From the NCBI GenBank assembly GCA_000002445.1, contig CP000070.1, forward strand, positions 2,048,001 to 2,112,000: 64,000 nucleotides of DNA. Reading direction: 5' to 3'. Source of the DNA: Trypanosoma brucei. Lineage: Eukaryota. A program made the translations under genes and the position numbers. Every line of letters begins with the position of its first letter. Position 1 is the stretch's first letter. Positions 1,401-26,700 of the stretch are shown piece by piece. Under the pieces are notes generated by a model that saw only the letters and a list, made by a program, of their open reading frames with translations, searched no databases and was not told the DNA's origin.

Positions 1401-1930
1401 TCTCTTCTTCCTATTTCTGTTCCTTCATCGTATTTGCCCACCTCACATTGATTTTTCTATTTTTTTCCTTTTTCGTTTTCATACCGCTTCTTATCGTAAC
1501 CCATCTCCTCTCTCTCTCACATCTCATCTCTCTCTCTTTCTGCTTGTTTGTTTTGGATCCCCTTTACCTCGCTTATTATCTAGCTTTCAAACTTTATCGT
1601 TCTTTTACTTTTCCCCCCTTTCCATTGATTTATTCATTAAACTTAACAAGAGTCACAGACAGTGAGACATGTGCAATATAATATCTGAACACGTTGTCTT
1701 TCACTTATTACCAACTCTGATGTGTTAATTCATAATATTTTCATTTTGTAATTCGCGAAGCATCGCTCCTCAACGAAGCCAAAAATTTTTTTCTTTTGTT
1801 CGTATCTTGCGCTTGTTCATTTATTTATTTTTTTTCACGCACAGGAGAAGTCGTCATGTAAACACATGAAGGATGATTAAATAAATAAATAAAGAAGCAA
1901 AGTGACGAATGGATTGGTGTGAGGCGAATA

Positions 1931-1955
1931 AACAACAACAACAACAACAACAACG
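1931..1955. repeat. (CAA)8 trinucleotide repeat in a gene-free region.
   Basis: Read directly: caacaacaacaacaacaacaacaacga. Confidence 0.9.
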
Positions 1956-3162
1956 ACACGTGGCCTACGACAGAAAATATTTGTGTGAGTTTGTAAAAAG
2001 TGAAAAACAAAACGACAAAACAGAACAATAACGACAGTGCCAACAGTGGGAACCGTTGTAATAATAACAATGATAATACGTGACTACAAGAAGATCGATA
2101 GCAAACCAGTCGTTCTCAAAGCATCGTCGAAATTAGAGAAAAGCAAAAATAAGAGAGAGTGAGATAAAGAGAGAGAGAGAGAGAGAAAAAAAAAAAAGGA
2201 AACAAACGGTTGTGCCGCAAACATTATATAAATGGAGAGGGGTGTAAAAAAAAAAATCACAGACATGTATATATTTATATAAAAAATGGGGAAGAGACAC
2301 ACACAAGGATGGATGCGGCAACAGTTAAATACGGGCACGTGAATATGAGAAGGTGAAGTGCCCACACCAACCGACTTTCATTTCATTTCATTTAATTTTT
2401 TTTATTTTACTCTCCCGTTGCCCGCAGTTGCTACGTCAGAAAACACAACGACAGCAACAACATTCAAGTGACCCACTTTGCTTGCACTTGGCTTATATAT
2501 ATATATATATTATTTTCGCTTTAGTTGTTGCCGCTGTTGCTGTTAGGCCTGCAATAGGGCCATTCGCATATCCCGCTGCAGCCGTATCCGTGTCTTCATC
2601 CAGGGAATACGTGAAGAAGGAGAATCAAACCGAACGAAAACACCAAAAGAAAAAAAAAAGAAGGTTCAATAATAAATAAGCAAGAGGTGAATGGGAGGAA
2701 AAAAGAGAAAAGGGGAGAAAATACCAACAGACAGGTGCGTGCCGACCTCATACCAGAGCGGTGGTGACAGCGTACATGCAAATGACAACTGGCTGCAGAA
2801 ACACCAGCCAAATATAATTTGGATGCGCATAACGTTGCTTCATAGTTCATATAAACACAACTTCTGTGCCACCACATTATCATTCACACGTTTCTCCACA
2901 TATTCATTTCCTTTTTCTGTCATTACTAAACCAGTCGTGGCGGTCATGCTTCCGCGCACCCGCTGTCCTCATTTACGATTATTACAATTATATTTATAAT
3001 TATTTCTTACGGTTATTCCTTTCGCCTTCGCCTTCACTTTCACTCTCACCCTCATTAGTAAACGACATATCTGCTGTAATCTACTCGTCACACGTGTCAG
3101 AGTTCCTTTTCCTCACATCAATTCCATTCTATCCGAACAATGAACTTCTCATCCATCTCTTC

Positions 3163-3201
3163 GTATATATATGTATATATATATATATATATATACACGT
3201 T
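3163..3201. repeat. (TA)n microsatellite immediately 3' of the phosphatase ORF.
   Basis: Read directly: tatatatatgtatatatatatatatatatatatac. Confidence 0.9.
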
Positions 3202-3226
3202 GCTTTTTTTTTGTCCTTTCTTTTTT

Positions 3227-6127
3227 CTAATGCGGCGAGGCGCATTCGCCAGCAAGCGCCTGCAACGCAAGTACGAAACCAATGTTAGGACTTATGTTCC
3301 TTTTCTTTCTGAGCATTTCAAATGCCCATTGATAACTTCCTGCTGTTTTTGAGCCTTCCTCCACACTCCTGCGCGCTACACAGCAACAACAGGCACAATC
3401 GGCAATGACATCACAATCGTTCTTCCCCACATTCGGCACCTCAGCACCTCCATTATTATTACTGCTGGTGCCGGGAGTTGCACTCATGGGGATGTTGTTA
3501 CTGGCATCATTTCCACATACTGCGAATGAGCTTGCCCCAACAGCAGTAGAGGGACTTCCACTACCGCTGGTGACAGCTGCTGGTGTGGTTGTGTTGACTC
3601 CTCTTCTTGGGCTAAAGCTACAGTTGCCGGCGCGGATCATTGCACCGTTTGGGGATGAGGGGTGAGTTGACGGTGGAAGCGCAGAGCCGCAACACACGGG
3701 CGCGCAACTGCCATCACGTACCGCAGGCGCACTGTGGTTCTCTGCTTCCTTTATCAACGTTGCCACTTCATCGCTGATCCGGCCCCAGCACCCGTTAGAG
3801 GAGAGAAACTCCCCGTAAAGAATAAGATACCCCAAAACGATAGTTGCGCTACGACTCACACCCTCTCGACAATGAACAAGTATACCACCGGCACCCCACG
3901 ACTGGAACATGGGCGGAAGGACGCTGTTGCTATTATGCGTAGAGGACGCTACAGGTTTGTTACTACCGCCGCAACCGTCACCAGCATTGGTGACACCATG
4001 ACAGGTGGCGGCTCCAATGTTACCATCACCCACCATTCCCTGTTCTGCACCCTTTCCAAACTTTCTGGTGCCCACCGCACCGTTCGTAGCGACTTTTGTG
4101 GCATTACTGCCGGTGCTACCCGCGGCGCATTGCGAACTATGACAACAGTTGGTGTTGCCATTCGTCGGGTGCTTGCAGAACGGGGGAGTCGTTTCCGTTC
4201 TGGTCAGCTCAAACTGCCGACGGTGCAGCTGAGTGTGAATCAGCTGTGCGAAGGATACCAGGTACCGCGCAACATCCTCATCACTGTTATCCTTCATGTG
4301 GAATTTCATGTAGTGGACGTTGCATGGGTTATTCAGCATTTCAGGGGTCACTGCACACTCCGTCGCTACGTTTATTACCAGCGAGATGCCCCGCTCAGCT
4401 AGAACCTCAGGCCTTTTGGAGTCGGCATAGGAACCAATAAACAAGCCCGACACCACCTCTGCTGCGTTGAAGCCCGTAAGGACAGCTGGCCTTGATATAA
4501 CTGAGCCGTTTTGTGGCGGGTGATCATTATCCTTCCGCAACACCTTCCTCTTTTCGCCACTGTCCATCCCCTTCTTTCGTTTGCATGGTGAGATTTGCTG
4601 AGGAGTTCGGCTTCCTCGCCCGCCGATGGTATCGGACTCTGCCCTCCACGATTTATCCATTGGTCCTGTGAGGGCTGACATCGCTGTACTCGATGGATGC
4701 CTGCTGAGGTCCAGCCGACAGGACACAGCGCTTAATGTCGTTGAAGGGCCCCGTGGAGCCGAATGTCTGTCCGTCTCATTATTCGCTGATGCCTCCGGAG
4801 ACGCGGCAGTAACGGGTGAGAAGGAGGGTGATTGCGGTAGTGTGATGAGTAAGGGATTCGCATTGGCCGCACTGAGTCGGTCCCGAATCCTCTGCCATCT
4901 ACTGTTGGAACCAACTTCTTCTCCTCCCTCAGCCCGTGCAGCCATCGTGTCCACTCCCGGCCCCTCTTCTACCATTCCTTGGCAAGGAAGACTCGGACTA
5001 AAATCCCTCCCTTCACCTAAGCCCCTGTTTATGCTCACGCTCTGCTCCTCAAAATATGAGTATTCCCTCACTAGTGGCTGCGACACATCAACTGTGGGTG
5101 ACTGGCTCACCGCCTCAGGCGTCCGGTTCCCTTCAGTGTCTTCACTTGTATCCACACCGGGGCATATGCGAGCACCGCCCCTAAGGATGTCGCTGCATCT
5201 ACCGATGCTGAATGACCGAGCCTCATCTTTGCCAACCGAGAGTGGTGGCGTCACAATATCATCAAACTTCGCCGTGCTGCGCGGTACTCCACCTCGCGTG
5301 TTGCACACCCTTCCTTCTAAGCCTCCCAGCGCTTCACAGCGCAAAGCCCCGCCGGTGCAACTTATATTCGACCTGAAGGTCCTCTCATTTGTTCCCAAGG
5401 GAGCGCGTGCCAGTGGTGACCTTGGAGTAAAGGCTGACGTCGTTCTCGTGGAAGTTAAGCCAGCTACGAGCTGACTATCCCTACTTTCTTCCTCTCCTTC
5501 AATTCTCACACTTCCCACAAATGGTCTAACATACGAAGTTGTCTTGCACGTGGCAGGGAGTGTGGTGAGGAGACCAGCGGCACGCTCCCGTTGCGTAGGA
5601 TTACTGCGGTGATCGGGGGCCCGGCTGTTAGCGTTGCTTTGCCTTTCGTCACCGGCGGCAGCAGACATTGTGATTTTCTGTGCCCCTGTTGCCAAGCTGT
5701 CTTTTTGCACCGCCAGCGGCGGCCACAAGTCTTCGTGCTCGTCTGTCAACTCCTCATCCCAATTAAAGGTTGTAGTGAGAGGCAGCGGCATGGTTTTGCT
5801 AAATTCTTCTTCCTCTTCTTGTTGCTTTTGCCGTTGCAGTGCAACCTTCGCGCGCCCCCCAGTTGTTGTTGTTGTTATTGGTGGTACATGCAGCGGCACC
5901 GAGGAGACGAGATGCGAGTCGGGTGGCAAACTGTGTACCCTCGCCCTCGGTTCAAAACGGGTTCCACCACTGCTTCTACTAGCGCGCCCAGTTGGTTCAG
6001 TAGTGGGGTGAAGGCTTGCTGTGTTGCGTCCGTCCCAATGATCCGAACTACTTCCTGGCGGCGTCTCACCACGTTCATTTTTCTTCCCTTTCTTCCCTCT
6101 TTCCCGTTTTGTTGCTTCTCTTTCCAT
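3227..6127 (-). CDS. Dual-specificity protein phosphatase-like protein (966 aa ORF). The catalytic domain carries a large Cys/Gly/Asn-rich insertion, and the flanking regions are long S/T/P-rich and low-complexity.
   Basis: Uninterrupted 966-aa ORF. It contains the CX5R active-site signature VHCREGVSRSATIVLGYL (HCxxGxxRS), preceded by the DSP-type LFIGS...ISLVINV motifs. Real start may be an internal Met. Confidence 0.6.
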   Translation of the reverse strand: MEREATKRERGKKGKKNERGETPPGSSSDHWDGRNTASLHPTTEPTGRASRSSGGTRFEPRARVHSLPPDSHLVSSVPLHVPPITTTTTGGRAKVALQRQKQQEEEEEFSKTMPLPLTTTFNWDEELTDEHEDLWPPLAVQKDSLATGAQKITMSAAAGDERQSNANSRAPDHRSNPTQRERAAGLLTTLPATCKTTSYVRPFVGSVRIEGEEESRDSQLVAGLTSTRTTSAFTPRSPLARAPLGTNERTFRSNISCTGGALRCEALGGLEGRVCNTRGGVPRSTAKFDDIVTPPLSVGKDEARSFSIGRCSDILRGGARICPGVDTSEDTEGNRTPEAVSQSPTVDVSQPLVREYSYFEEQSVSINRGLGEGRDFSPSLPCQGMVEEGPGVDTMAARAEGGEEVGSNSRWQRIRDRLSAANANPLLITLPQSPSFSPVTAASPEASANNETDRHSAPRGPSTTLSAVSCRLDLSRHPSSTAMSALTGPMDKSWRAESDTIGGRGSRTPQQISPCKRKKGMDSGEKRKVLRKDNDHPPQNGSVISRPAVLTGFNAAEVVSGLFIGSYADSKRPEVLAERGISLVINVATECAVTPEMLNNPCNVHYMKFHMKDNSDEDVARYLVSFAQLIHTQLHRRQFELTRTETTPPFCKHPTNGNTNCCHSSQCAAGSTGSNATKVATNGAVGTRKFGKGAEQGMVGDGNIGAATCHGVTNAGDGCGGSNKPVASSTHNSNSVLPPMFQSWGAGGILVHCREGVSRSATIVLGYLILYGEFLSSNGCWGRISDEVATLIKEAENHSAPAVRDGSCAPVCCGSALPPSTHPSSPNGAMIRAGNCSFSPRRGVNTTTPAAVTSGSGSPSTAVGASSFAVCGNDASNNIPMSATPGTSSNNNGGAEVPNVGKNDCDVIADCACCCCVARRSVEEGSKTAGSYQWAFEMLRKKRNISPNIGFVLALQALAGECASPH

Positions 6128-8392: not shown

Positions 8393-10567
8393 TTATCGGT
8401 AGTCCCTGTAGTGATCAGGTTTACGCCGCTTCGCTCCTACACCTCTTTCACCCCTTTGCCATGGCAGTCCTTTTTCTGCTGGTGGCTGCTGCTGCTGCTC
8501 ATCCGACACTGCGATCGCGGATGCGTGCTGTATTTTGCTTCGTACCGTGCGCGAGAACCATTTATTTGAGCCTGTGTTGGAGGCATCAGTGCCGCTACTA
8601 CCATTAACAACAACGATATCGTTGGTGTTGTTATTATTATGGTTTTCACTGACGTTACCCCTACGTTGTTGCTTCACTGCTGAGCCAGTTGTACCGTTTC
8701 CTACTGAAGTCCCACTAGCGTAGCGATGGCCGTTATTAACGCCGTTACCAACGGTGTCACAACTTACACCGGCGCCTCCAACACTACCGGTCACAGAGGT
8801 CTTTAAATCTTTCTTGAATGGATCCACACAACTTTGCCCATTGGTGTGGTCGAAGTTGTGAGGGCGTGGCGCGGAAGAGGAAGAGCCATCAACAACGTAT
8901 TGACCTTTTGTAGTAACCAGCGAGCCTCCATCCATGCGGACGGAATTTCCAAATGACGAGAAGCCATTAGCTACGGTACCCGACGCCCCCACCATTGTCG
9001 CGCATGCCGATGCCGCAGTAACAGAGCTTGAAGCTGCTGCGGCAGCTACGCTGTGGTCAGTGCCAAGTTCTCGACTGTTACGATTGGCAATGCCAAACTG
9101 CTGCTGCTGTTGTTGTTGTTGCTGACGGAAGTCTACCTTCTTGTCCATACAAGCCTCTCCACTCCTGTTGATCATCACTGGTGTGGTCATCTGGTACATT
9201 TGGCGACCGTATATGGTAGGCACCAATACAGCAGAACAGCCATAACCGTTAATCCCGTTGCTCTCCGAAAGGTAAAACTGGCGGCTCCTTTCTCGAATTC
9301 GGTTCAGGAAAATCCGATCGCTCTGTTCCATGCGCTGGGCCCGTCGTGCGAGGTTTGACTCGAGCCCACATTTCCAGGGACGGAGGTGTTCAGCCCAAAA
9401 GCGGGCCCCAAACTCCCGTAGCGCTACCTCGTTCTGTGCGCTAACGTCCTCTCCAACGCAGTCATTGTTGCTGCTGACCTCCACTTCGGCAAGTTCCTTA
9501 ACGAGCCGCCTCATGAGTCTCGCTAGCGTTTCATAGTCCTCGTCATCTATCCACAGATCCCACCCTAGCACTGAACAGAAGCGCAGCTCGAGTTTGTTCA
9601 TCTCCGATAGTTTAATACCACCAAGAAAACTATAATACCTATTGTCGAAGAACCGATCTTCACGCATCTTAGCACTGAGCATAGCGCTGGTGATCATGAG
9701 GCGGTGCACGTTATAGTACGTAACGGGGTGGGAAATGGTAAAAGAATACTTGAGCAGCATAATGAGGCTTACCAGAAGCGTCTCCCCACTGAAGGAACCC
9801 CTCAACCTGAAGCGCTGGGTATAGGCAGCTATTGACGTCCCAGGAATCGAGGAGGAATGGAAATCTGTTGTGAGAAGCGGCTCCGATGAGTTTTCCTCGC
9901 ATAAGCTCTCCAAGAAAAGCACGAGGCCCCTGCATACTGTGTCCAGTTCAATTGGAAGCGTCACAGCTCTCTTCTCTCCATCAGCATTATCATCCCCGTT
10001 GACAACACCATTACTATCGTGGCCATCAGCAGGACGGCCATCACCATCTGGTGCAATAAACCCACTGCCTTTCGTCGTGTCACGTCCCCCCGCAACTTCG
10101 TTGTTTTCGTGGCCACACTTTTGCCCCAGTTCATCTCGTGCTTCCTCCTCTTGCCCACACGAAGGAGATAATCCGTTCACTGCACCCCTCTCATCCACAG
10201 CACCACTAGCGGCACTTGTGTCGCTGTTGTTGTTGTTTTTAACCCCTTTGTTGCACACCACTTCGGTGTTATTACGATTGTCGTCGCTACTACCTATAAG
10301 GGCTACGTGCCTACCTTTATCATCATTACCATTGCTCGTGCAGCTACTACAATTTGAATTAATGTGGGCGACTGTTGTGACATCGTGAGCAGTCCCTGTC
10401 CTTGCTCGTTTTACCTTTTTATGCATTTCATGATTACGATGGTAATCACATGCATCGTCCTCGCCGTCGTTATCATTGATATTGTCCAGCATGTCGGTGT
10501 GTATGTTGTCTCGCTGTGGCGAAAGGGGCTTCCACGAATTAGAAACACCACAGGCGTGTGGATTCAT
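8393..10567 (-). CDS. PHO80-like (CYC2-family) cyclin, 724 aa, with long N-terminal extension and a poly-Q tract.
   Basis: 724-aa ORF. It carries a cyclin-box segment typical of the PHO80 family (RLMITSAMLSAKMREDRFFDNRYYSFLGGIKLSEMNKLELRFCSVLGWDLWI). There is a Q9 run encoded by (CAG/CAA)n. Confidence 0.6.
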   Translation of the reverse strand: MNPHACGVSNSWKPLSPQRDNIHTDMLDNINDNDGEDDACDYHRNHEMHKKVKRARTGTAHDVTTVAHINSNCSSCTSNGNDDKGRHVALIGSSDDNRNNTEVVCNKGVKNNNNSDTSAASGAVDERGAVNGLSPSCGQEEEARDELGQKCGHENNEVAGGRDTTKGSGFIAPDGDGRPADGHDSNGVVNGDDNADGEKRAVTLPIELDTVCRGLVLFLESLCEENSSEPLLTTDFHSSSIPGTSIAAYTQRFRLRGSFSGETLLVSLIMLLKYSFTISHPVTYYNVHRLMITSAMLSAKMREDRFFDNRYYSFLGGIKLSEMNKLELRFCSVLGWDLWIDDEDYETLARLMRRLVKELAEVEVSSNNDCVGEDVSAQNEVALREFGARFWAEHLRPWKCGLESNLARRAQRMEQSDRIFLNRIRERSRQFYLSESNGINGYGCSAVLVPTIYGRQMYQMTTPVMINRSGEACMDKKVDFRQQQQQQQQQFGIANRNSRELGTDHSVAAAAASSSVTAASACATMVGASGTVANGFSSFGNSVRMDGGSLVTTKGQYVVDGSSSSAPRPHNFDHTNGQSCVDPFKKDLKTSVTGSVGGAGVSCDTVGNGVNNGHRYASGTSVGNGTTGSAVKQQRRGNVSENHNNNNTNDIVVVNGSSGTDASNTGSNKWFSRTVRSKIQHASAIAVSDEQQQQPPAEKGLPWQRGERGVGAKRRKPDHYRDYR
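9097..9124 (-). repeat. Coding (CAG/CAA)n trinucleotide repeat, the poly-Q of the cyclin.
   Basis: The + strand reads ctgctgctgctgttgttgttgttgttgctg. It translates on the minus strand to QQQQQQQQQ. Confidence 0.9.
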
Positions 10568-11248
10568 ACCGGCGGCAGCGCTGACAGCGTCCTAAGCGGG
10601 AATGTCGCAACAGGCTGAACAGAAAACACTAGTTTGCGTAAGCCCGTCCACTCGGTCCCCTTCTCTCTCTTTTTTTTTTAAATCTTAAAAAGAGAATAAT
10701 TCCTACTATCTTCTCCCCCTTACCTATCACAGCGTCTCCTGAGTCAGGGCCTCTACCGTGTCTTACTTTATTACAAACTCAACTTATTCACCTACAACCC
10801 AAATGACACTACCACCGCAACTTTCCTTTATTTTTCAAAAGCTTTCCTTATTTATAATATTTGCTACCGTGTTCACTAGTTACTACGCTCCCGCGCTTGA
10901 GCGACTGCAAGTCCTGCGTATCCCGATCACCCCTTAAGCGAGTGCTAGAGAAGGAACCGAGGAAAATAAATATTTGTGAATTTGTACACACACAAGTGCA
11001 GACGGACGTAAGGACAAGACCGGATATGTTGGCGTGTAGTGGCAAAAAAAATAAATAAATAAAAATAATGAAACCCACCCGTCCCATCTTGTTACGGCCG
11101 GAGTGGACGTTACCCTTGTGACAGTGACGCGCGCAACAAATGGAAACACAAACCGTGCTGCACTATGAAGAGAAGAGGAAGCATACCGCGATCCGTCCCC
11201 CCTTTTCCCAATGGGGAAAAGGTGTGAGAATTGAGTGGATGGAAAACG

Positions 11249-11320
11249 TGGACGAGTAGGGGATCAAACCCTAGGCCTTCCGTATGCGAAACGGATGCTC
11301 TACCACTGAGCTACACGCCC
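11249..11320 (-). tRNA. tRNA-Ala (anticodon CGC), 72 nt without CCA, with two non-canonical positions (U6•U67 mismatch and U56 in the T-loop).
   Basis: The minus-strand sequence GGGCGTG-TA-GCTC-AGTGGTA-GAGC-A-TCCGT-TTCGCAT-ACGGA-AGGCC-TAGGG-TTTGATC-CCCTA-CTCGTCC-A folds as a cloverleaf. The A box TAGCTCAGTGG is canonical. The anticodon loop has U33-CGC-A37. The G3:U70 alanine identity pair and the A73 discriminator are present. The B box reads GGTTTGATCC rather than GGTTCGATCC. Confidence 0.7.
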
Positions 11321-12752
11321 CGTAGTGCAATCGGTGCGCTGCATTCGTTTACCGTTGCGTGGCTACAAGCCATAACCGCCACAAGCCACAACATAAAGTG
11401 CGGGGGAGACACAACCGATGCTATCCATCATTACCACCTCCATTCCTTCCCCACCCATCTTGGTTTTGCACACGTGGCTTCTACGGAAGGCTTTTCCACC
11501 ACATATACGGCTGCATTTGCATCGAAAGCATGCGTTGTTGGGTACCAGGCAGCTGCGTATTCTCCAGTTAGTAATGCAATTTCACAAACTCCCACGGAAC
11601 AAGAAGACAACAAGGTATTCGCGCCGGTCCTGTAATGTGTCTCCACTGCTCAAATGGCGTCTCACACATGACCCAGTGCAATCGTGTGCACATGAACAAC
11701 TGGTGTCAATCAGATATTCAGAAGGAAAAATCAAGAGGCCCCGCTTCAGGGGTTGGTAAATAATATTTTTCATAAGGATGTCTCGCAACTCTCGGACTGT
11801 GTGGCGCGGCTGCGGCGTAGAGGAACAGTCATGCATGCAGGACAATCAGCTACGGGAATGAATACCTCCTCTACGGGTGCTGGCAAGCATCTTACTGATA
11901 GGACAAACATGCGTGGAACACATTCAGCTACCATCCTTTTGAGGTAAGCAAGCGACATACAAGGAAACTTTACCCGTGAGTTTGTAGTGATCCACTGCAC
12001 TGTTGGTGCCCTATTTTTGACTCTTCTTTGTTTTGTAGTCCCCTCTATCGTGGACACACCTTGCTTTCCACTCAACAACTACGGTGTATCTACCGCAGTG
12101 GCGGCGCAGCACACATCAACCAAAGAATCAGAGAGAAGAGAATGTGTGACAGTAGTGAATGTGGAATGAAGGGGAAGTTTGACAACAACAACAGTGAAAT
12201 ATTACACATGTAAAACAGTTTGCGAGTAGCCCTGTTGTGGAAAGAAAAGAGGGTACACCGCCCCACACAACACGATATGTCAGCACGCAGTGCAACGGGG
12301 AGGGGAATCCGAATAGCACTACAACGGAAGCACATCACGTGCAATGACAAATATCATCCTTGATGAAACAGGTGACGGTAACATCTCCTCACTTTTCCAT
12401 AGGAGTACTGTCTCGTTTACTCATCTTCCACTTGCTCACTTCGATATTAAGATGTGTGAGAAAACCAACCCAACCCAAGGGCAGCATTTCAGTCTCCTTC
12501 ACAATGACTGTCCATCCCACATCACGCCGCTTTTCCATCCCGAAGTCCGGAAGATCTCCGTTACTTCGTAGTGCTTATTGTGCCAACTCCTCACCACCGC
12601 AACAGATAATGTGTAAAACGATGCCAAGGAAGAACCAACAGAGGTGTAGCGAAGTAAATTGACACACCCAAGCACAAACATATAGCAATTAGGATCAGCT
12701 GACGGTATGGCAAACCAAGGGACCATGGCTGCCACCAACACACGTCAACTCG

Positions 12753-14963
12753 TTACCAACCGTGACGATTCTTAGCGGACTCGAGCACCACGACAGGCGT
12801 ACGCACTGTGTGGATCTTCGGCGGTATCGGCATGTGGTCGCAGACAATCTCCTTGCAGTCAGTGAGTGTGCATGGGACACCGATTATATCATCCAAGCGT
12901 ATTGAGCCACACCGTTCCAGCAGTAACTTCCCAATGGCCTTTTGGGACGCCAGCTTCTTGAGGCCCTCCGCTGCAATAGGGATGGCGCAGAGTCTCAGAA
13001 CGCAAGACCGGATGGCACTTTTGTCGGCACTGATTTTTTCGAGTAACTCGCAGTCACTCAAACTCAACTCCTCGAGAGTCTTTATGGCAAATACAGGATC
13101 AACGTGTGTCAAGTGCTTGGCGTTTCTCACACATAGCGACCGCAGTGCTTCACACCGCGAGAGGTCTTCAATTTCCTTATTCCCCACGAAGGGACCCTCG
13201 AGTATCAACTTGCTGAGCTCCGGCAGCGAGGCGATGGCAGCAAATTCGGAGACGCTGCGCAGCCCACAAATATACAATTCCCTCAGTTTCTTCGGCGATG
13301 CCAACTTCGATACGTTCAGCTCCCCACCACAGTACCAGAGTCGAAGGCACGTGAGATTCGTGGCCGACTCACAAATGGTTTCCAATGTGGTGGTGGAAGC
13401 AGACCCGCTACACAACCCGAGGGTCTCCAATGGAGATCTCCGCCCGGGGAACACCACCTCGGGTGAGTCATCCAAAAACAGCCTGCGTAGATTCCGCAGG
13501 GATGCGATGTCCTTAGAAGTCTTTTTACTGAGTGTCGAGCAGAATCGCAGGTCGACTTCGCTCAGGGATGTGCTGTACAGCTTTCCCACACATTCATCAG
13601 TCACCGCAGTAGCCCGCAATAGGAGCTTCTCCAGCGGTGGCGCACAGTCCACAGGGCCAACAATTCTTGCACGACTGCATAGGCTGAGGTCCAACACCTT
13701 CAGCGACCTCAGGTTGGTCAATGGGCTTATGTCAACAATTTCCTTGTTCCCGCTGAGGATCACCTCCTCGAGCGTAGTGAATGCTGATAGTGCCTTCACA
13801 TCGGCATCCGTTACGCCGCTATTCGTCAGGCGCAACACACGAAGTAACGGCAGCTCGGTTCCCCACTCGAACGTAGAACGAACACCCACATTGTCAAGAC
13901 ATAACTCCACCAATTTCTTGCAGTTTTTCAGTGAGATCTTGCTATGCACCGCCGAGCAATCCCCAAGCCGCAGCACCTTTAACGACACACAATCATGAAA
14001 ATACTCGACAAGTCCATTGCCAACGATAAGGGAGGTTCCGGTAATAACCAATCGTCTGAGAATTGGCCACGTCAGTGTGTCAGTGAAGGCATTCATGTTG
14101 GGACAGTTCTCAATGGTGATGCTATCGAGAAACAGGGCATTCCCTAAGAATTTGGCATCCTGTAACATCGAGATATTCTTCATTACAATCTCACGCAGTT
14201 TCTCAAGGGACTCCACACCTTTCTCCCATTCGTTATCCAGCCGTGTACCATGCAGGATAAGCGTTTGGAGGCAGGGGAATTTACCGATACACGACATGTT
14301 GGCTACAGCACCCGGCCCGATTTCCAACAGGTATAACCCTTGATTGTTGAGTAGCTCGAGGTCCAGGCGTCCACAACACCGTCGGAGGCGCAATTCTCCC
14401 ACATCGCCCTTTAGTGATGAGAGTTCTTTCAGATTAAACCCCGGGTCGTCGACAACAATCACGTCTGCGGGGTCATCACATTCAAGTGGTGCGTTCTTAT
14501 CGCAGTTTATAACTGCCTTCCACGTGACTGGTCGTCTCCGATATTCATCATACTCTTCCCGCAGCTTTTCGTGTTCCGCTGCCACCATATGGACATGATT
14601 GCGCAGTTCTGCGACCTCCTCCCGCAGCTTCTCCACATCTTCATTGGTTACCATTTGTTCCTCACCTTCAGAGCGGCTTCGCTTCGCCATCGCGCCTCCC
14701 CCTTTGCCTTTTGTATTTTTGGTGAGGGAAAGAGTGTGGATTGTGTAAAAAGGTGGAAAGGGCGATTTGAGTGACGTAAGAAAGGAAGGCTTGGGGAAGA
14801 AGTGGAGCTGCACACCCAGCGACTTTGGACAATACAAACGGGTGTAACACTGTGCTGAGAATGCTTTCACCTTCTCTCTGCTTAACTCTCCCCATGCATT
14901 TGGCCGTGAGCACCAGATATCCCTTCGGATGCTGAGAATGGCCTCTGAGGAACTGTGCACCAC
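12753..14963 (-). CDS. Leucine-rich repeat protein with N-terminal coiled coil and ESAG8-type LRRs (LRRP1-like), 736 aa.
   Basis: 736-aa ORF. The N-terminal heptad region is VEKLREEVAELRNHVHMVAAEHEKLREEYDEYRR. It is followed by about 20 repeats of the L..L.L..C..I.D.S.L type, for example LEELSLSDCELLEKISADKSAI and LRVLRLGDCSAVHSKISL. Confidence 0.7.
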   Translation of the reverse strand: MVHSSSEAILSIRRDIWCSRPNAWGELSREKVKAFSAQCYTRLYCPKSLGVQLHFFPKPSFLTSLKSPFPPFYTIHTLSLTKNTKGKGGGAMAKRSRSEGEEQMVTNEDVEKLREEVAELRNHVHMVAAEHEKLREEYDEYRRRPVTWKAVINCDKNAPLECDDPADVIVVDDPGFNLKELSSLKGDVGELRLRRCCGRLDLELLNNQGLYLLEIGPGAVANMSCIGKFPCLQTLILHGTRLDNEWEKGVESLEKLREIVMKNISMLQDAKFLGNALFLDSITIENCPNMNAFTDTLTWPILRRLVITGTSLIVGNGLVEYFHDCVSLKVLRLGDCSAVHSKISLKNCKKLVELCLDNVGVRSTFEWGTELPLLRVLRLTNSGVTDADVKALSAFTTLEEVILSGNKEIVDISPLTNLRSLKVLDLSLCSRARIVGPVDCAPPLEKLLLRATAVTDECVGKLYSTSLSEVDLRFCSTLSKKTSKDIASLRNLRRLFLDDSPEVVFPGRRSPLETLGLCSGSASTTTLETICESATNLTCLRLWYCGGELNVSKLASPKKLRELYICGLRSVSEFAAIASLPELSKLILEGPFVGNKEIEDLSRCEALRSLCVRNAKHLTHVDPVFAIKTLEELSLSDCELLEKISADKSAIRSCVLRLCAIPIAAEGLKKLASQKAIGKLLLERCGSIRLDDIIGVPCTLTDCKEIVCDHMPIPPKIHTVRTPVVVLESAKNRHGW

Positions 14964-15714
14964 TTCTTGGCAAGCGTAGATTCCACCGGAAGTTATTTAG
15001 TGGTTGCGCAAAAATAGGATTGGCGAATGTTTCCGTAGATTGATGCTTTGTTCCCCAGATCTTTCTCTAGTATAAAGTATGTTGAGCACTTACAAATTCG
15101 TACGTTATGTCAAAACCTTCTCATATTTGGTAATTCAGGAGCTTTTTACAAAAAATCTCATTTACCAACACTGTTTTGCATTTTGCAGAGAAGGCAAATA
15201 ACCGCAAAAAATTCTACGCAGACCACATGAGCTTTGGTGGGGCGTAATTTGTACATGTAAAACGTGTACATGGAGTTTACAGTTGTTAAACACATGCACT
15301 GGAAAGCCTCAAACAATAGGAGCAGCAGTAACAAGTAGACGTGCTTGTAATGATGGATGAAAAAGATGTGCTTGTAGCGGAGTGTTGCCGCCCAGTAAAG
15401 CAAGTACCGCCCAAAGATTAATGACCCCCCTTCCCCGAAGATACCGGTGTCGTTACCGCCAAGCGAACCAGTTAAAGCAAAAACAAAAAAAACACAAAAA
15501 AGCGAAGTAAGGCGTACATGCTTACGCTTGTAAAGGGATATAATACATAAAAAATGTAAAAAAGAAGTATGGTAAGTTAAAGGAGGCGGGGGGGGGGAGA
15601 GGGAAAGGAACAAAGGACTGGGTAAATCGTTGTCGTAACAGCTTCTTGTGGTAACTGAGGGCGGGATAACTCAAGAAAAGCAACCTTTTAAAAACTCATC
15701 GGGGTATCTCTGCA

Positions 15715-18700
15715 TTACACTCCGACACTGCCGGGCCGTGTTCGCCGGAACTTTGGCTGCGACAGGCGCTCCGACAAGCAGCGCTGCGCCTCTACGGCTT
15801 TGGGCCCGTGCGGTATCTCTCGGATTAGGACATACGGCCTGCCTTGCTCGTCCAGCTTTACCTCCTCTAAAACCACTACGGAGGTTGACGATGTGTCCTC
15901 ATTCCTTTTCCCCTCCTGTGATATTGTCCGCCTTATACTCCGGCGGCGCAGTAGAGGGGAATCTCCTGTATCCTGCCGCCCTGAACAGCTAAACGCTCGT
16001 GTTGGCTGCCACGTTGATTTTCTTCTCGCCGACGTGGACGAAAGCTCCCTTAGTAGCAGCCTTGTCACATCTGCCGTGCGACGGGTGCCACCGCATGAGC
16101 TTACGCTCATACTGCGCGCAGGATCCGTTCTTTTCGATGGCGTTGGACCCGTTCGATCCCGCCGCCGGTCGTGGGCAGCGCTGAAGTTGGAAGCATGTGG
16201 TGCCCGAACATTCCTAACCGGAGTATTGGACCCGGCGCTTGATGAGCTGCGAGGCCTAAACGCCCAGCGGAGGTCTACTACGGGAATGGCAACGCCGCCC
16301 ACATTTCGCTCGGTGGTGGCTGCTGAGGGATCACTGCCTTCCGGCCCGGTCTTTCTAGAGGTTCCTGTCGGCGCGTCATCCATCCACGAGGCTGAGGTGG
16401 ACAGAGAGCCGGGCACGCGACCACTAATACGCTCATCGCTCACGTGGAGCTTTTCAGCACATTGTCTACGCGAGCGTTGCGATTCTTCCTTACTAGGTGA
16501 CCTGCAAGTTTCCCGTTGTGTCTCGAAAACTGACGGCTTGCACGGAGAAACGTTTGTGGAAAGTTTCTTGTCGGGGGGCACTGTGGAAGATATGCATCCA
16601 TCTGCGTCGATGACCCTCGCTGGTGCCTTCAGGTTACGGTCTCGTTTCAAACCGTCAGCATCTGATGGGGCTGCAGCCATGCCGGCTGGTGTTCTGCGTC
16701 TCTCCGCGCTACTATGACCACTCTCAGCTGCACGGGTTCCCCTTCCCTTGCGTGTCGAGTCCCGTGTCTCATCTTTGGGCTCGGCAGATAGTCTCCGTTC
16801 TTGCATTTGGCTCGCCTTTCGCTGGCTCAGATTTTTATGCAGGTCAGCTGCACCGTCGCCGCGGGCGTGGCTACGTCTACGTGCCATATGGCTGCACCTG
16901 TGCGTGCAGGTTGAGCGGCAACAGCAACAACTGGGTGAGCGGTCGAATGTGTGTGACGCGCGACGTGGGCGGTCTGCCCGGCCCGAATCACTGGAGCGAC
17001 ACCGGTCGCTCGTGTAGTTGTCTCTGGTGCTCATTGAGCGCGAGGACCTCCTTCTTCCACCACTGACGTACCCCATCGAAGACGGAGGAGGAGCACCGGG
17101 CAACAGGAAGTCCAAACAACCTCTGCCGTGCCTCCACGGGGACCTCCTTTCTTCCCCTTCGTGCATGTATCCGGTGCAACGGCCGCCGTGGAGTGCTCGC
17201 CTGGTCGGCGTCCTCATGCAGGTTAAGCGAGAGGACTTGTGCCTACGCGATTCTTCCATCTCTTGCTTAAGCAGAAAGTACAACTTGTACACGTCTGTTG
17301 CACGGAATATAGAGGATGGCGAAGAGGAACGATCGTTATGGGAGGCACCACGGCTACGCCCATGCGCTTTAGTCCTACGTTGCCCCCTGTCGGTGTAACC
17401 GTGCGTGTGGCCTGGCTGATGCCCACCATGCTTGTCTGGTGAAGTTCCCCCCTTGTCACATTTATCTCCCGAATATGATTCCACGGATGCATCGCTGTCG
17501 GTGTCACTGTCTTCTTCCTCTTCCCTCTCGTCTTCGCTGCTGTCGGGTTGCGGTGGCCTCCGTTTCTTATTCTGCCCTACACGGCAATCAACCAATTTGG
17601 AAGCTGAAGGCTTACGCCGTGGCGAAGGTTTCTTCACCGGACTCGAAGTGTCCTTTTCCCTTTCCTTAGTACGACCGCGACTGTGACGATCGTTGGCTCC
17701 TACTGGTGTGGCTCTTTTGCCCGAGCTGGACGGACTGCGATTTGGTTCCCTGCAGTTCGTTGCCGTGCTCTTTACTTCCCGTAGGACCTCCTCACCTCGT
17801 TCGGACGCTATTTCACCGTGGTGGGAACGTGGGGGATGCGTGGACCGCTTATCCTCTCCCCGCGTGCCGCCGTGTTCTCGCTCATCTGTGGCATGTTTTC
17901 TATTCGGTTCGGGACTCTTGGCCTTCTGAATTTCTCGGATTACCCTTCCCGCCCCCGCTCTAGAGGTGTTGACAGTGGGTGACACATCATTACTTACTGT
18001 CTCTTTCTTTTGAAAAGAAGTTACACCACTTCCCGTTGTGGATGCCCCTGTGCCAACACCACTTTTAACCACGGGCTGGGGTGGTGTTGGAGTTTCTTTG
18101 GGGGTGACGGCAGGGGAGGGGATGCGTTCCTTAGTAGGCTGAGTTTCTTCGTGCTTCGTTTTCATTGGGGCGGTGCCCTTTACTGGCGCCGCATGATTTG
18201 CGAAAGGTGCGGGGGTTTCCAAACTTTTGGCCTCAGCTGGAGCTTCTTTGACAACAGGTTCAACATTATCAGCACGTCTCGGTGCCTGCGTTGCGCTACT
18301 TTCCTGATTTCGACCAGTCATACCGCGGCGATCGTCTGACTTTTTTACTTTCTCCGTGGTCGTCGGGATCTCTACTGTTGCCCGCTTCTTGGCCTTCGCG
18401 TCTACCTCCTCGGAGTCCGAATCTGAATCGGAGTTACGGGGGCGGGGCACCGGCATGGACATGATGGGTTTCAGCTGCGCGTTGCGGTTGCGCTGATTAC
18501 CAATACCAACAGCACTGAGTCCGTCACTGCTGCTGCTGTCATCATCTAAAGCTCTTGTTGTAGATAAAGAGGCTGTCGCTCCCTCATCCTTCTGCCTCCT
18601 TTTGTTCGTTTGGTTTTTCTCGTGAGAGGCGGACTGGATCTCCCGGGAGGAAACGGGGTTGGATCTTCGTTTCCCACTGGAACAAGGTGTGTCGGCTGCC

Positions 18701-23700: not shown

Positions 23701-26700
23701 GCTTGTTTGGCGCGGCCCAATACCAAAGAGAGCTGCTGTTGCCGTTAGTGAGGGTTCTTGTGGGCTATATGTTCCTGGTCCGGGCCCATCCGTTCCTAGA
23801 GTGAGCGAAGCGTTTCTTCCTCCCATGGGGAAAGAGTATGCTTGGGAAGAGTCCCATTGCGGATGGTGGGGCATGTACTGCCCGGGTCCAGGGGCTTCGT
23901 CCTCCCCTCTCTCGGTTGCAAAGCGAGGACTTATGGGAAAGGCGGAAACAACGGCTCGGCGATGAGATAAATCTTCCCCAGTGTAGTCGTACTGCCCAGG
24001 CCCAGGGACGTCGCTTCCCTCAAGACTGGGCGCCTCCCGGGTAGCTGTGGGGAAGCGATAGACAGGTGCCGTCGGTGACGTTGTACGCGACGCCCCAACA
24101 TTATACGTTCCTGGTCCCGGCCCTTCCTCATGGTTCAAAGAACCCAAGGCACGTGGTTCGACACCGAACCGTGTGCCTGTAGCTGTGAGTGTGGGGATGG
24201 TGACATCGTAGGCTCCGGGGCCGGGTGTGGTTCCATCGTTCTCGGTAGCATCCTGTGGCATGCGAGGTTCCACTCCAAAAGAGTAGGCTGCTCCACCTAC
24301 CTTGGTGCTTAGGTCCTCCGGATGATATTGGCCAGGCCCGGGAAGAAGTGCGTGTTCTCGTTCCTTCAGATCGAGGACACGTGGCCCCCTGCTGAACACA
24401 GGAACACCAGCAGCCGCTGTGAGGGTTCCACGATCTTCTATTGAATAGTATCCAGGTCCCGGAGTGACGTCGTTGTCACCACCTGCAGCAGCCCCCGCAA
24501 CATTGTCGAACCGGGGTGCTGTTGTGAAGGAGACCGGACCGACTGGTGACGCGCCTCCAGTGGTCGGGTCTAACGAATACGCTCCGGGTCCCGGGATGCT
24601 CCAACTGTCTTCATGAGACTGTAGACGAGGTGCCATGCCAATTATGGCGGAGCGCGCACAAGAGGCCTTGCTATCGTGGGGATTGTAGTGACCCGGACCA
24701 ACCGCCAACTCGCCGTGCCGCTCCTCCTGTATTCGTCCATCCGCGGCGCTACCGAACGTGGTGTGAAAGGTGTGCGGGACGGGAAGGATAACTTCGTATG
24801 ATCCTGGACCGACACCGGGTCGCATAAGCGCTTCACGCTCTTCTGGTGATGTCGGGTGTTGCGGCGACGAACCAAAGACTACACCTGGGATCGTGCGTCC
24901 ATGTGGGTCTTTTGGAGCATACGCCCCAGGACCAGGGACAGCCTCTGCGGGATCAGCCCGCTGGGACGGTTTGCCACAAGATATGCCGAAGTTCACGACA
25001 TTAGTTGGGGTTGGGCTCTGCCGAGTGTCATATGCTCCAGGACCCGGTACCTCATTAAGTGTATCGGCAGCAAACCTGGGACCGGCGCTCCACACTGCCC
25101 CCGATGCAGGACCTTTAGGCACTTGGGGATCGTATGAACCTGGTCCAATCCCGTCGTTGCCATCGTGGTTCCCCACGGAGTGGTCGATGGTTAAAAGGCG
25201 TGGCTCTGTGCCAAACACTGCCGCCCCCCTGTACTCCGGAGGTCTCTCTATTGTGTAGGCCCCTGGTCCTGGGACATCTTGACGATCTTTTTCCCCACCG
25301 CTAGTCTGAAACCTTGCAGCTTCACCAATCACAACGGCCCGGGTGTTCGGCATCGGATCTTGTGGATCGTATTCTCCGGGTCCGGGAACTGACACACTGG
25401 GCTCTGGGCCGTCAAGTTTCTGACCGATTGAAAAAGACGGGCTATTCTTCGGCATGGCGATCTCGTACGCACCCGGGCCTGGTTTTTTTGCAGCTTCATC
25501 CTCGTTGAATGGTAATTCTCGTGGGGCACTTCCGAAGACAGCGGCACGGCCCCTCGTTCCCACATCCCCACAATCAGCATCGTAGTGTCCTGGTCCGGGG
25601 GTGGCCACCACACCGGCAGCCCCTTCAGCACCCGGTTCGCTACTCTCCGCAAATCGCGGTGCGGCGGCATTTAATAGAGGCGACACGACCCGTGGCTCCT
25701 GTACAGTGGTAAGTGCTGTGTAAGTGCCTGGCCCCGGCACATCAGCACAGCAGTCGAAGCCAAGCGTTGATACTCGTTGTGCGGTACCCATGATGGCAGA
25801 CCGCACGGGACTGGTCTGTCTCTCTGTCTCGTAAGTTCCCGGTCCGGGGAGCGTCTCAGCAACTTTCGTCCCTTCGTGCAGCACACGCGGCGCTGTAGGG
25901 AATAAGGGCGCAGAGGAATGCGAATGTTTTAGCTCATATGTGGAAACACTGTACTCACCAGGTCCTGGGGTAGGATGGGGCTCGAGAGGTGCCGAGGGCG
26001 ACTCCGACACAAGCCACCGTGGACCGGTAGACATTTGTGGCAATTCGTAGTGGCCGGGACCAGGCGTTGTATCCACCCGCTCTGCTGGTCGGCGTCCCAT
26101 AAGGTAGGCTGGACCACTTTCCCTCCTGACGGGTTCATATGCCCCAGGTCCAGGTACTTCATGAGGGGAAGTGCGCTCCTTGCTCCACGGAGATCCACCA
26201 CGTCTTACGTTCGTTATCACGGCACTGCGACCACTGACGGCTGTGCACCTGTCGCTTGGCACAGAAGCGGTATCGTACGTGCCTGGACCTGGTACGTTCG
26301 CTGGTTCAGAAGGTGGTGAAGAAGTGAGTGGCACTCGTCCATAACGTAGTAACTTCGCACGACCAAATGAGAAAGCAGGAGGGCTCCTCCGCCGCGCGTC
26401 GGAGAGTGTCGCGGCTTCTGGGTGATATTCGCCAGGTCCTGGTATGAGCACCGCCTCCTTTGTGGGAAGTATAGAAAGCTGACGACGACTACTCGATAGG
26501 GTGCGGGCACTTTTCTTTGATGAGGTTTCTGTCATACTCTTTTCCTTGACGTCGTACGCTCCGGGCCCGGGAAAATTATTGACAGCATGCAACTTTCGTT
26601 CTGCCCGTCCAATTAGCACCCCCCCAGTGGCCGTTTTCCCGGGGGACAATGCAGACATACCTAATTCACCAGACACATCGTACGCCCCAGGACCCGGTGA

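Follow-up and report, generated by a model that had tools for sequence, protein, structure and literature searches.

A tRNA-Ala(CGC) gene with an intact cloverleaf and an altered B box

The window analyzed here, a 64-kb stretch of Trypanosoma brucei chromosome 7, contains one tRNA gene. ARAGORN called a single tRNA-Ala with the anticodon CGC at 11248-11320 on the minus strand, and cmscan aligned 11249-11320 of the same strand with Rfam family RF00005 over model positions 1-71 of 71, at a score of 63.2 bits against a gathering score of 29 (E = 2.4e-11). This match is far beyond chance. A first-pass annotation of the window, made from the letters alone, had described a convincing tRNA-Ala(CGC) cloverleaf and proposed Infernal scoring as a check; the score and the ARAGORN call both bear the description out.

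The 72-nt gene (11249..11320, minus strand; chr7 2059249..2059320, complement) is Tb927.7.7175, also named Tb07_tRNA_Ala_3. Its coordinates, strand and 3' flank equal those given for Tb07_tRNA_Ala_3 in Additional files 1 and 2 of PMC2695483; the flank begins CGTTTTCCATCC, and the Additional file 2 entry, CGTTTTCCATCCACTCAATTCTCACACCTTTTCC, agrees fully with the window. Because coordinates and flank agree, the window must start at chr7 2,048,001. We checked the resulting offset of 2,048,000 separately: with the published 3'-UTR lengths of 739 nt for Tb927.7.7160 and 230 nt for Tb927.7.7190, the poly(A) sites of these two genes fit the window ORF stop codons at 3227 and 15715 exactly.

Written as RNA, the tRNA reads GGGCGUGUAGCUCAGUGGUAGAGCAUCCGUUUCGCAUACGGAAGGCCUAGGGUUUGAUCCCCUACUCGUCCA. 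The cmscan alignment and pair list give the acceptor pairs as G1-C72, G2-C71, G3•U70, C4-G69, G5-C68, U6•U67 and G7-C66, with U6•U67 (U6 at 11315 and U67 at 11255) as the sole non-standard pair. The two elements of alanine identity, the G3:U70 wobble pair and the A73 discriminator, are present together with U33 and A37, as the first-pass annotation had listed them. Set against the functional paralog on chromosome 11 described below, neither the cloverleaf nor the identity elements show the disruption that would mark a pseudogene or relic. The minimum-free-energy fold of the chromosome 7 tRNA is not a cloverleaf, and the same is true of the chromosome 11 copy and of variants repaired in silico. 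The fold therefore carries no weight for or against the chromosome 7 copy.

Two features of a type-2 Pol III gene are in place, a consensus A box and a run of at least four T near the 3' end. The A box, TAGCTCAGTGG (tRNA positions 8-19; 11303..11313, minus strand), follows the pattern TRGCNNAGTGG with 0 mismatches and is as canonical as first described. Directly 3' of the tRNA stands CGTTTT, whose T4 run (11243..11246, minus strand) is of the Pol III terminator type and starts 2 nt past A73; a backup T4 run follows 22 nt further on (11217-11220), and the gene is entered as '4 / 4 / 22' in Additional file 2 of PMC2695483. A B box of the form GGTTCGANNCC, with its central C (tRNA C56), is what the gene lacks. 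The T loop reads UUUGAUC, which puts a U at position 56 (window 11266), and the B box GGTTTGATCCC (11260..11270, minus strand) has 1 mismatch to GGTTCGANNCC, at box position 5 (tRNA 56), where a T stands in place of the conserved C. The U56 and degenerate B box reported from the letters alone are thus real.

Two further sequence elements were noted near these motifs. An imperfect hairpin lies about 22 nt downstream of the tRNA (11196-11227), with 14-nt arms that are 86% complementary and a 4-nt loop; its core is CCTTTTCCC/GGGAAAAGG, and the backup T4 run falls within it. At 24155-24165 on the plus strand, inside a 2395-aa ORF, the B-box consensus occurs exactly, as GGTTCGACACC. This is no evidence for an extra TFIIIC site: matches at 1 mismatch or fewer number 10 in the window, below the 14 expected.

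The tRNA is flanked by two protein-coding genes. Upstream is an ORF for a leucine-rich-repeat protein (LRRP; 12753..14963, minus strand; ORF list and Pfam LRR), by order Tb927.7.7180. Downstream is a CYC2-like cyclin (8393..10567, minus strand; Pfam Cyclin), by order Tb927.7.7170, which matches the T. brucei TREU927 protein of this name at 100% identity and whose start codon is 681 nt beyond the tRNA 3' end. The tRNA itself occupies an ORF-free gap of 2185 bp (10568-12752). Every one of the long ORFs in the window that are not nested in a larger ORF (16/16) is on the minus strand, as is the tRNA, and the tRNA is therefore co-directional with its neighbors. This agrees with the earlier placement of the gene, made with the strand unstated, between two co-oriented protein genes of a Pol II unit.

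Two substitutions separate the gene from its chromosome 11 paralog

Neither Tb927.7.7175 nor its B-box deviation is new: the literature and TriTrypDB have carried both since 2009. Padilla-Mejia et al. 2009 (PMC2695483) identified Tb07_tRNA_Ala_3 with Tb927.7.7175, gave its anticodon as CGC and counted it as a gene, not a pseudogene. As the one isodecoder of T. brucei they named it TbtRNA-Ala.01, which shares 97% identity with Tb11_tRNA_Ala_1. They also recorded the T at Box B position 5 of Tb07_tRNA_Ala_3, the sole gene listed with a change at this position in their survey of Tritryp tRNA genes. In their judgment the Box B change 'strongly supports' differential control of the isodecoders by Pol III. 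The paper is inconsistent about the changed position, naming both 5 and 10; the sequence shows 5 (tRNA C56) to be right. In the text of the searched literature we found no mention of the gene ID Tb927.7.7175 or of the tRNA sequence, no T. brucei tRNA sequencing that resolves the two isodecoders, and no paper linking the later ChIP-seq and transcript maps to Tb927.7.7175.

We took the chromosome 11 locus from T. b. gambiense and from a second T. brucei-group assembly by way of the COX subunit X protein Tb11.01.4702; this protein is printed in Kolev et al. 2010 (PMC2936537) and its gene lies between two chromosome 11 tRNA clusters. On alignment, 70/72 nt of the two tRNA-Ala(CGC) genes are identical, and only G26A (A26 at 11296, minus strand) and C56T differ. 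The copies can be told apart by GAGCA and GGGUUUGAUCCCC on chromosome 7 versus GAGCG and GGGUUCGAUCCCC on chromosome 11. The Rfam score is 65.5 bits for the chromosome 11 copy and 63.2 bits for the chromosome 7 copy. The flanks of the two copies are unrelated beyond 1-2 nt on each side and the 72-nt body alone is common to them. The chromosome 7 sequence shows no difference between T. b. brucei, T. b. gambiense, T. equiperdum and a fourth assembly.

All the stems of the chromosome 7 tRNA are identical to those of the chromosome 11 gene, U6•U67 included. Because the mismatch is found in both copies, it is normal for the lineage and not a defect of the chromosome 7 copy. The first-pass annotation was right that the mismatch exists but not in regarding it as aberrant for a functional tRNA, for the chromosome 11 paralog carries it and yet binds Pol III factors. 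The comparison with another tRNA-Ala copy, which that annotation had proposed, leaves U56 as specific to chromosome 7, shows the mismatch to be common to both genes and adds G26A, which had gone unnoticed. We had also taken U6•U67 for the second published isodecoder difference and for a sign of decay; the chromosome 11 sequence refuted this, as the second difference is G26A and the U•U is common.

Base frequencies, and these only, were taken from 38 environmental eukaryote-type tRNA-Ala(CGC) genes, none of them evidently kinetoplastid, which were collected by a degenerate scan of metagenomes with N at the tested positions. G26 occurs in 38/38 of these genes and C56 in 37/38, and for this reason we consider A26 and U56 of the chromosome 7 copy to be derived, the polarity at position 26 resting on this environmental sample and not on a trypanosome outgroup. 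The lone gene with T56 is also without G3:U70; this gene (L028) is probably a pseudogene. Position 6:67 is non-Watson-Crick in 10/38 of the environmental genes, and a weak 6:67 pair may, judging from these sequences, be recurrent in tRNA-Ala(CGC). In these 10/38 the mismatch (A•C, U•C or U•U) falls exactly at 6:67 and the remaining acceptor stem is paired. An exact 39-mer scan of metagenome contigs returned 0 matches.

The gene lies in a segment that looks lineage-specific

The order of genes at the locus in T. brucei is 1318-aa gene, LRRP, tRNA, cyclin and DSP phosphatase. In T. cruzi, T. rangeli and T. conorhini it is 1300-aa gene, cyclin and phosphatase, the orthology of the 1300-aa gene being confirmed. 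ARAGORN and Rfam found no tRNA in the syntenic interval of these three species, and the LRRP gene is missing from the same interval. The segment that carries the LRRP gene and the tRNA (within 10568-15714) looks, from this comparison of sequences, like a lineage-specific insertion. Both Ala(CGC) genes of T. cruzi adjoin Arg(CCG), as does the chromosome 11 gene of T. brucei. Because the syntenic interval has no tRNA and the Ala(CGC)-Arg(CCG) pairing recurs in T. cruzi, we regard chromosome 11 as the ancestral locus and chromosome 7 as the derived copy. A homolog search with the 1318-aa neighbor returned its own cluster only, and neither the T. vivax COX-X contig nor one Logan contig contains a tRNA.

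Several details of the two regions were recorded alongside. The 1300-aa gene and the cyclin are adjacent in T. cruzi, T. rangeli and T. conorhini, with gaps of 0.9-1.7 kb. On chromosome 7 of T. b. gambiense, another annotated LRR ORF, of 362 aa and truncated by the end of the extracted locus (1-462 of that locus), lies about 1.1 kb upstream of the 743-aa LRRP (1578-3809 of that locus); at the corresponding place TREU927 has a 151-aa ORF (15158-15613), followed about 0.75 kb upstream by the 1318-aa gene. This discrepancy may be one of copy number or of annotation. At the chromosome 11 locus (L047), the COX-subunit-X gene is present twice (10001-10351 and 15392-15742), about 5.4 kb apart, and the COX-X interval is bracketed by tRNA clusters at 173-565 and 18091-18426, each with a tRNA-Phe(GAA). 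The arrangement suggests a segmental duplication around the ancestral chromosome 11 Ala(CGC) locus.

Short repeats are also found close to the chromosome 7 tRNA. A direct repeat matching at 12/14 positions stands at 11078-11091 and 11449-11462, with about 0.7 expected by chance on our estimate. A perfect 9-nt complement joins the 5' end of the tRNA (positions 2-10, 11311-11319) to 11031-11039, with about 0.7 expected in the 600-nt region. We do not read the short repeats flanking the tRNA as target-site duplications, as by this estimate they are at the level of chance. The stretch 11031-11039 is the extreme 3' end of the transcript Tb7.NT.107 (described below), near its poly(A) site, and the 9-nt complement is probably meaningless.

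Pol III factors are absent from the gene and Pol II reads through it in published maps

Occupancy of the two copies can be compared in the ChIP-seq data of Staneva et al. 2021 (PMC8559703), obtained in bloodstream-form Lister 427, where Pol III genes, and termination regions overlapping such genes, carry eight marker factors including TBP. In that work 53/69 tRNA genes bind all eight factors, 11 bind some and 5 bind none. Table S8 lists the tRNA-Ala cgc at Chr7_core 2057285-2057357 as 'no' for a termination region and 'no' for all eight factors, TBP included, each 'no' being a peak-overlap call in bloodstream-form Lister 427; Pol III itself (RPC1) is not tabulated gene by gene. Four more genes of the table are 'no/no': the two tRNA-Sec genes, which Pol II transcribes, and two copies in subtelomeres. 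The chromosome 11 Ala-cgc gene, on the other hand, lies in sTTR_8 and is 'yes' for all eight factors. The Lister 427 ortholog is presumed to carry the same bases, since the copies of TREU927, T. b. gambiense and T. equiperdum and that of a fourth assembly all agree.

Transcription across the site was mapped in procyclic cells by Kolev et al. 2010 (PMC2936537). In their Table S14, derived from 5'-triphosphate RNA-seq, a single minus-strand Pol II unit extends from Tb927.7.7460 to Tb927.7.6890 and spans the chromosome 7 tRNA; the other chromosome 7 tRNA loci and both chromosome 11 clusters start units labelled 'next to tRNA'. Their Table S7 further lists Tb7.NT.107, a 1051-nt transcript of the minus strand running from 12089 to 11038 (chr7 2060089->2059038), at 4.39 RNAs/cell in procyclics. 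It belongs to a class of novel transcripts defined as trans-spliced and polyadenylated. We found that Tb7.NT.107 contains the tRNA in sense, 769 nt from the transcript 5' end, and that an AG (12091-12090) with a preceding pyrimidine tract lies just upstream of that 5' end.

From the continuous unit and Tb7.NT.107 together it follows that Pol II reads through the tRNA and that the 'gene-free' 2 kb around it is transcribed and processed. The first-pass annotation had spoken of about 2 kb of gene-free DNA, a description that holds for ORFs (2185 bp) but not for transcripts. It had also put the gene forward as a candidate site of Pol II pausing or termination and of chromatin-mark deposition; for the chromosome 7 copy this proposal is contradicted by Table S8 of PMC8559703 and by the maps of PMC2936537. 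TREU927 is the strain of the window; the loss of binding and the read-through were observed in two others, Lister 427 and YTat 1.1.

One explanation is that C56T lowers TFIIIC binding short of abolishing it and leaves a weakly or conditionally active Pol III gene, so that the two isodecoders are differentially regulated, as proposed in PMC2695483. Its authors argued for such control, and the A box and T4 terminator are intact. The ChIP calls are thresholded, binding at several single tRNA genes is limited to TBP, or to TBP and PHD2, and the factor ChIP comes from one life-cycle stage only. However, Pol II is uninterrupted at the tRNA in procyclics too, so that two life stages and two methods agree, and we consider continued use of the gene by Pol III to be improbable.

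A second explanation is that the sequence serves as a tRNA-like element, either with its A and B boxes acting as the promoter of a neighboring small-RNA gene or as an RNase P signal that shapes Tb7.NT.107. In published work, trypanosome U-snRNA and 7SL genes are described as needing an upstream divergent tRNA or tRNA-like A and B boxes, and the chromosome 7 tRNA does lie inside a longer Pol II transcript. Nevertheless, Pol III factors are absent from it in Table S8 of PMC8559703 and the sequence reproduces a bona fide tRNA almost exactly. An Rfam search of 10400-12900 (E <= 1) found no companion small RNA (snRNA, 7SL or other family) save for one chance-level match, and it ruled out the candidate that we had considered, a gene for a small RNA on the other strand some 100 bp upstream. 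As no companion small-RNA gene is present, we give a promoter or processing element very little credence.

The gene is probably a duplicate disabled for Pol III

The explanation that we favor, and consider reasonably likely, is that the chromosome 7 tRNA is a lineage-specific duplicate of the chromosome 11 gene that is disabled for Pol III and travels as a passive part of a Pol II transcript. TFIIIC has its high-affinity site in the B box. The central bases of this box are read base-specifically by Tau138, and mutation of the B box essentially abolishes TFIIIC binding. C56G abolishes TFIIIC-dependent targeting in Dictyostelium, and T. brucei possesses a TFIIIC with a Tau138 ortholog. C56T changes one of these base-specifically read positions, the central cytosine, in the duplicate, and TFIIIC, with Tau138 as the subunit that binds this box, would no longer bind the chromosome 7 copy stably. 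TFIIIB/TBP and Pol III would then not be recruited. With no Pol III complex, no roadblock, boundary chromatin or nucleosome-free boundary would be expected to form at the tRNA, and Pol II would not stop there; the tRNA would remain a sense passenger in Tb7.NT.107 between the LRRP and cyclin mRNAs. We infer in this way that C56T is the cause of the lost factor binding, and we would expect little or no mature tRNA from the chromosome 7 copy. The copy is probably silent in function as far as Pol III is concerned, a spare that is probably decaying, and the cellular tRNA-Ala(CGC) probably comes from the chromosome 11 gene.

Several observations speak against a Pol III-disabled duplicate. C56T, whose effect on the TFIIIC of trypanosomes is presumed, differs from the classic C56G change. 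The A box, T-run, G3:U70, A73 and anticodon loop of the chromosome 7 tRNA are all intact, and A26 and G19•U56 are tolerable in principle. In addition, the sharing of a 72-nt body between copies with unrelated flanks is compatible, as far as the sequences go, with long-term selection or gene conversion preserving the chromosome 7 copy.

The intact body of the gene also raises the possibility that the tRNA is expressed by Pol II, like tRNA-Sec: having lost its Pol III promoter, it would be excised from the transcript by RNase P and 3' processing to give a functional isodecoder of low abundance. Aeby et al. 2010 (PMC2943599) showed by experiment that T. brucei tRNA-Sec is made by Pol II and that placement in a polycistron suffices for expression, and they noted that the tRNA-Sec genes, 'unlike all other tRNAs', lie in ordinary intergenic regions of a polycistron. 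This statement of uniqueness is contradicted by the chromosome 7 Ala(CGC) locus. The chromosome 7 tRNA is in sense in an intergenic region of ordinary size (2185 bp versus 1640 and 833 bp for tRNA-Sec), its B box is deficient (C56T), it is free of boundary chromatin and Pol III factors, with a 'no/no' row like those of both tRNA-Sec genes, and a spliced-leader-containing transcript covers its 5' flank. The locus thus shows every contextual feature by which tRNA-Sec was characterized in PMC2943599. Moreover, its identity elements and cloverleaf are intact, and the U•U is tolerated in the active chromosome 11 paralog.

On the other side, a mature product of the chromosome 7 gene is hypothetical. 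U56 turns the near-universal G19-C56 elbow pair into a wobble pair and weakens the elbow, and the RNA could for this reason be unstable or poorly processed. The chromosome 11 gene already supplies tRNA-Ala(CGC), and there is no evident need for a second source. We therefore regard expression by Pol II as unlikely, if the main competitor of the Pol III-disabled duplicate.

Significance and relation to known systems

Two near-identical tRNA genes here show opposite behavior: the chromosome 11 gene is bound by the factors and bounds Pol II units, while the chromosome 7 gene is unbound and read through. The pair offers a ready-made natural control for the termination of polycistronic Pol II transcription by tRNA genes in trypanosomes. 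If the chromosome 7 copy is indeed a knock-out and the chromosome 11 gene its factor-bound twin, it would be the assembled Pol III complex, and not the tDNA sequence, that stops Pol II and seeds boundary chromatin. The copy is also a candidate for the second case of a tRNA delivered by Pol II. We think there is only a slim chance that it is an overlooked second Pol II-made tRNA, released from Tb7.NT.107; even otherwise it may be a natural single-base knock-out of the B box. The value of the analysis is modest in that it links scattered published data and the gene itself is not a new discovery. What it adds is that the U•U is lineage-normal, that G26A and C56T are the true copy-specific changes, that the locus is a derived insertion, and that a role in termination is contradicted by the published maps.

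The closest relative of the gene is Tb11_tRNA_Ala_1 on chromosome 11, which resembles it in the anticodon CGC, G3:U70, A73, the A box and U6•U67. It differs in having G26, the consensus B-box C56 and a T6 terminator (T4 on chromosome 7), and it sits in an Ala-Arg-Phe cluster at a Pol II termination region while the chromosome 7 copy does not. The system described by Padilla-Mejia et al. (PMC2695483), isodecoder genes with variation in their promoter boxes, is the same one, since the chromosome 7 copy is among their own examples. They proposed differential regulation by Pol III in 2009, whereas the later ChIP-seq and transcript maps point to a complete loss of Pol III use.

The tRNA-Sec genes of T. 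brucei (PMC2943599) are like the chromosome 7 copy in lying in sense in an intergenic region of a polycistron, in their non-consensus B box, in the absence of Pol III and termination-region factors and in the spliced-leader RNA over the 5' flank. They differ in that they are without a consensus A box and are the only source of their tRNA, and their dependence on Pol II has been shown experimentally; the chromosome 7 copy has a perfect A box and an active Pol III paralog, and is known here from sequence and published maps.

Finally, tRNA genes are known as Pol II roadblocks and termination regions in trypanosomatids (Marchetti 1998 and Siegel 2009, as cited in PMC8559703; Staneva et al. 2021, PMC8559703; Kolev et al. 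2010, PMC2936537). The setting of the chromosome 7 copy is the same, a tRNA between Pol II-transcribed genes. It is nevertheless an exception to the roadblock tRNA genes, as in the published maps the site is free of termination regions and of bound factors, and no transcription start lies downstream of it.
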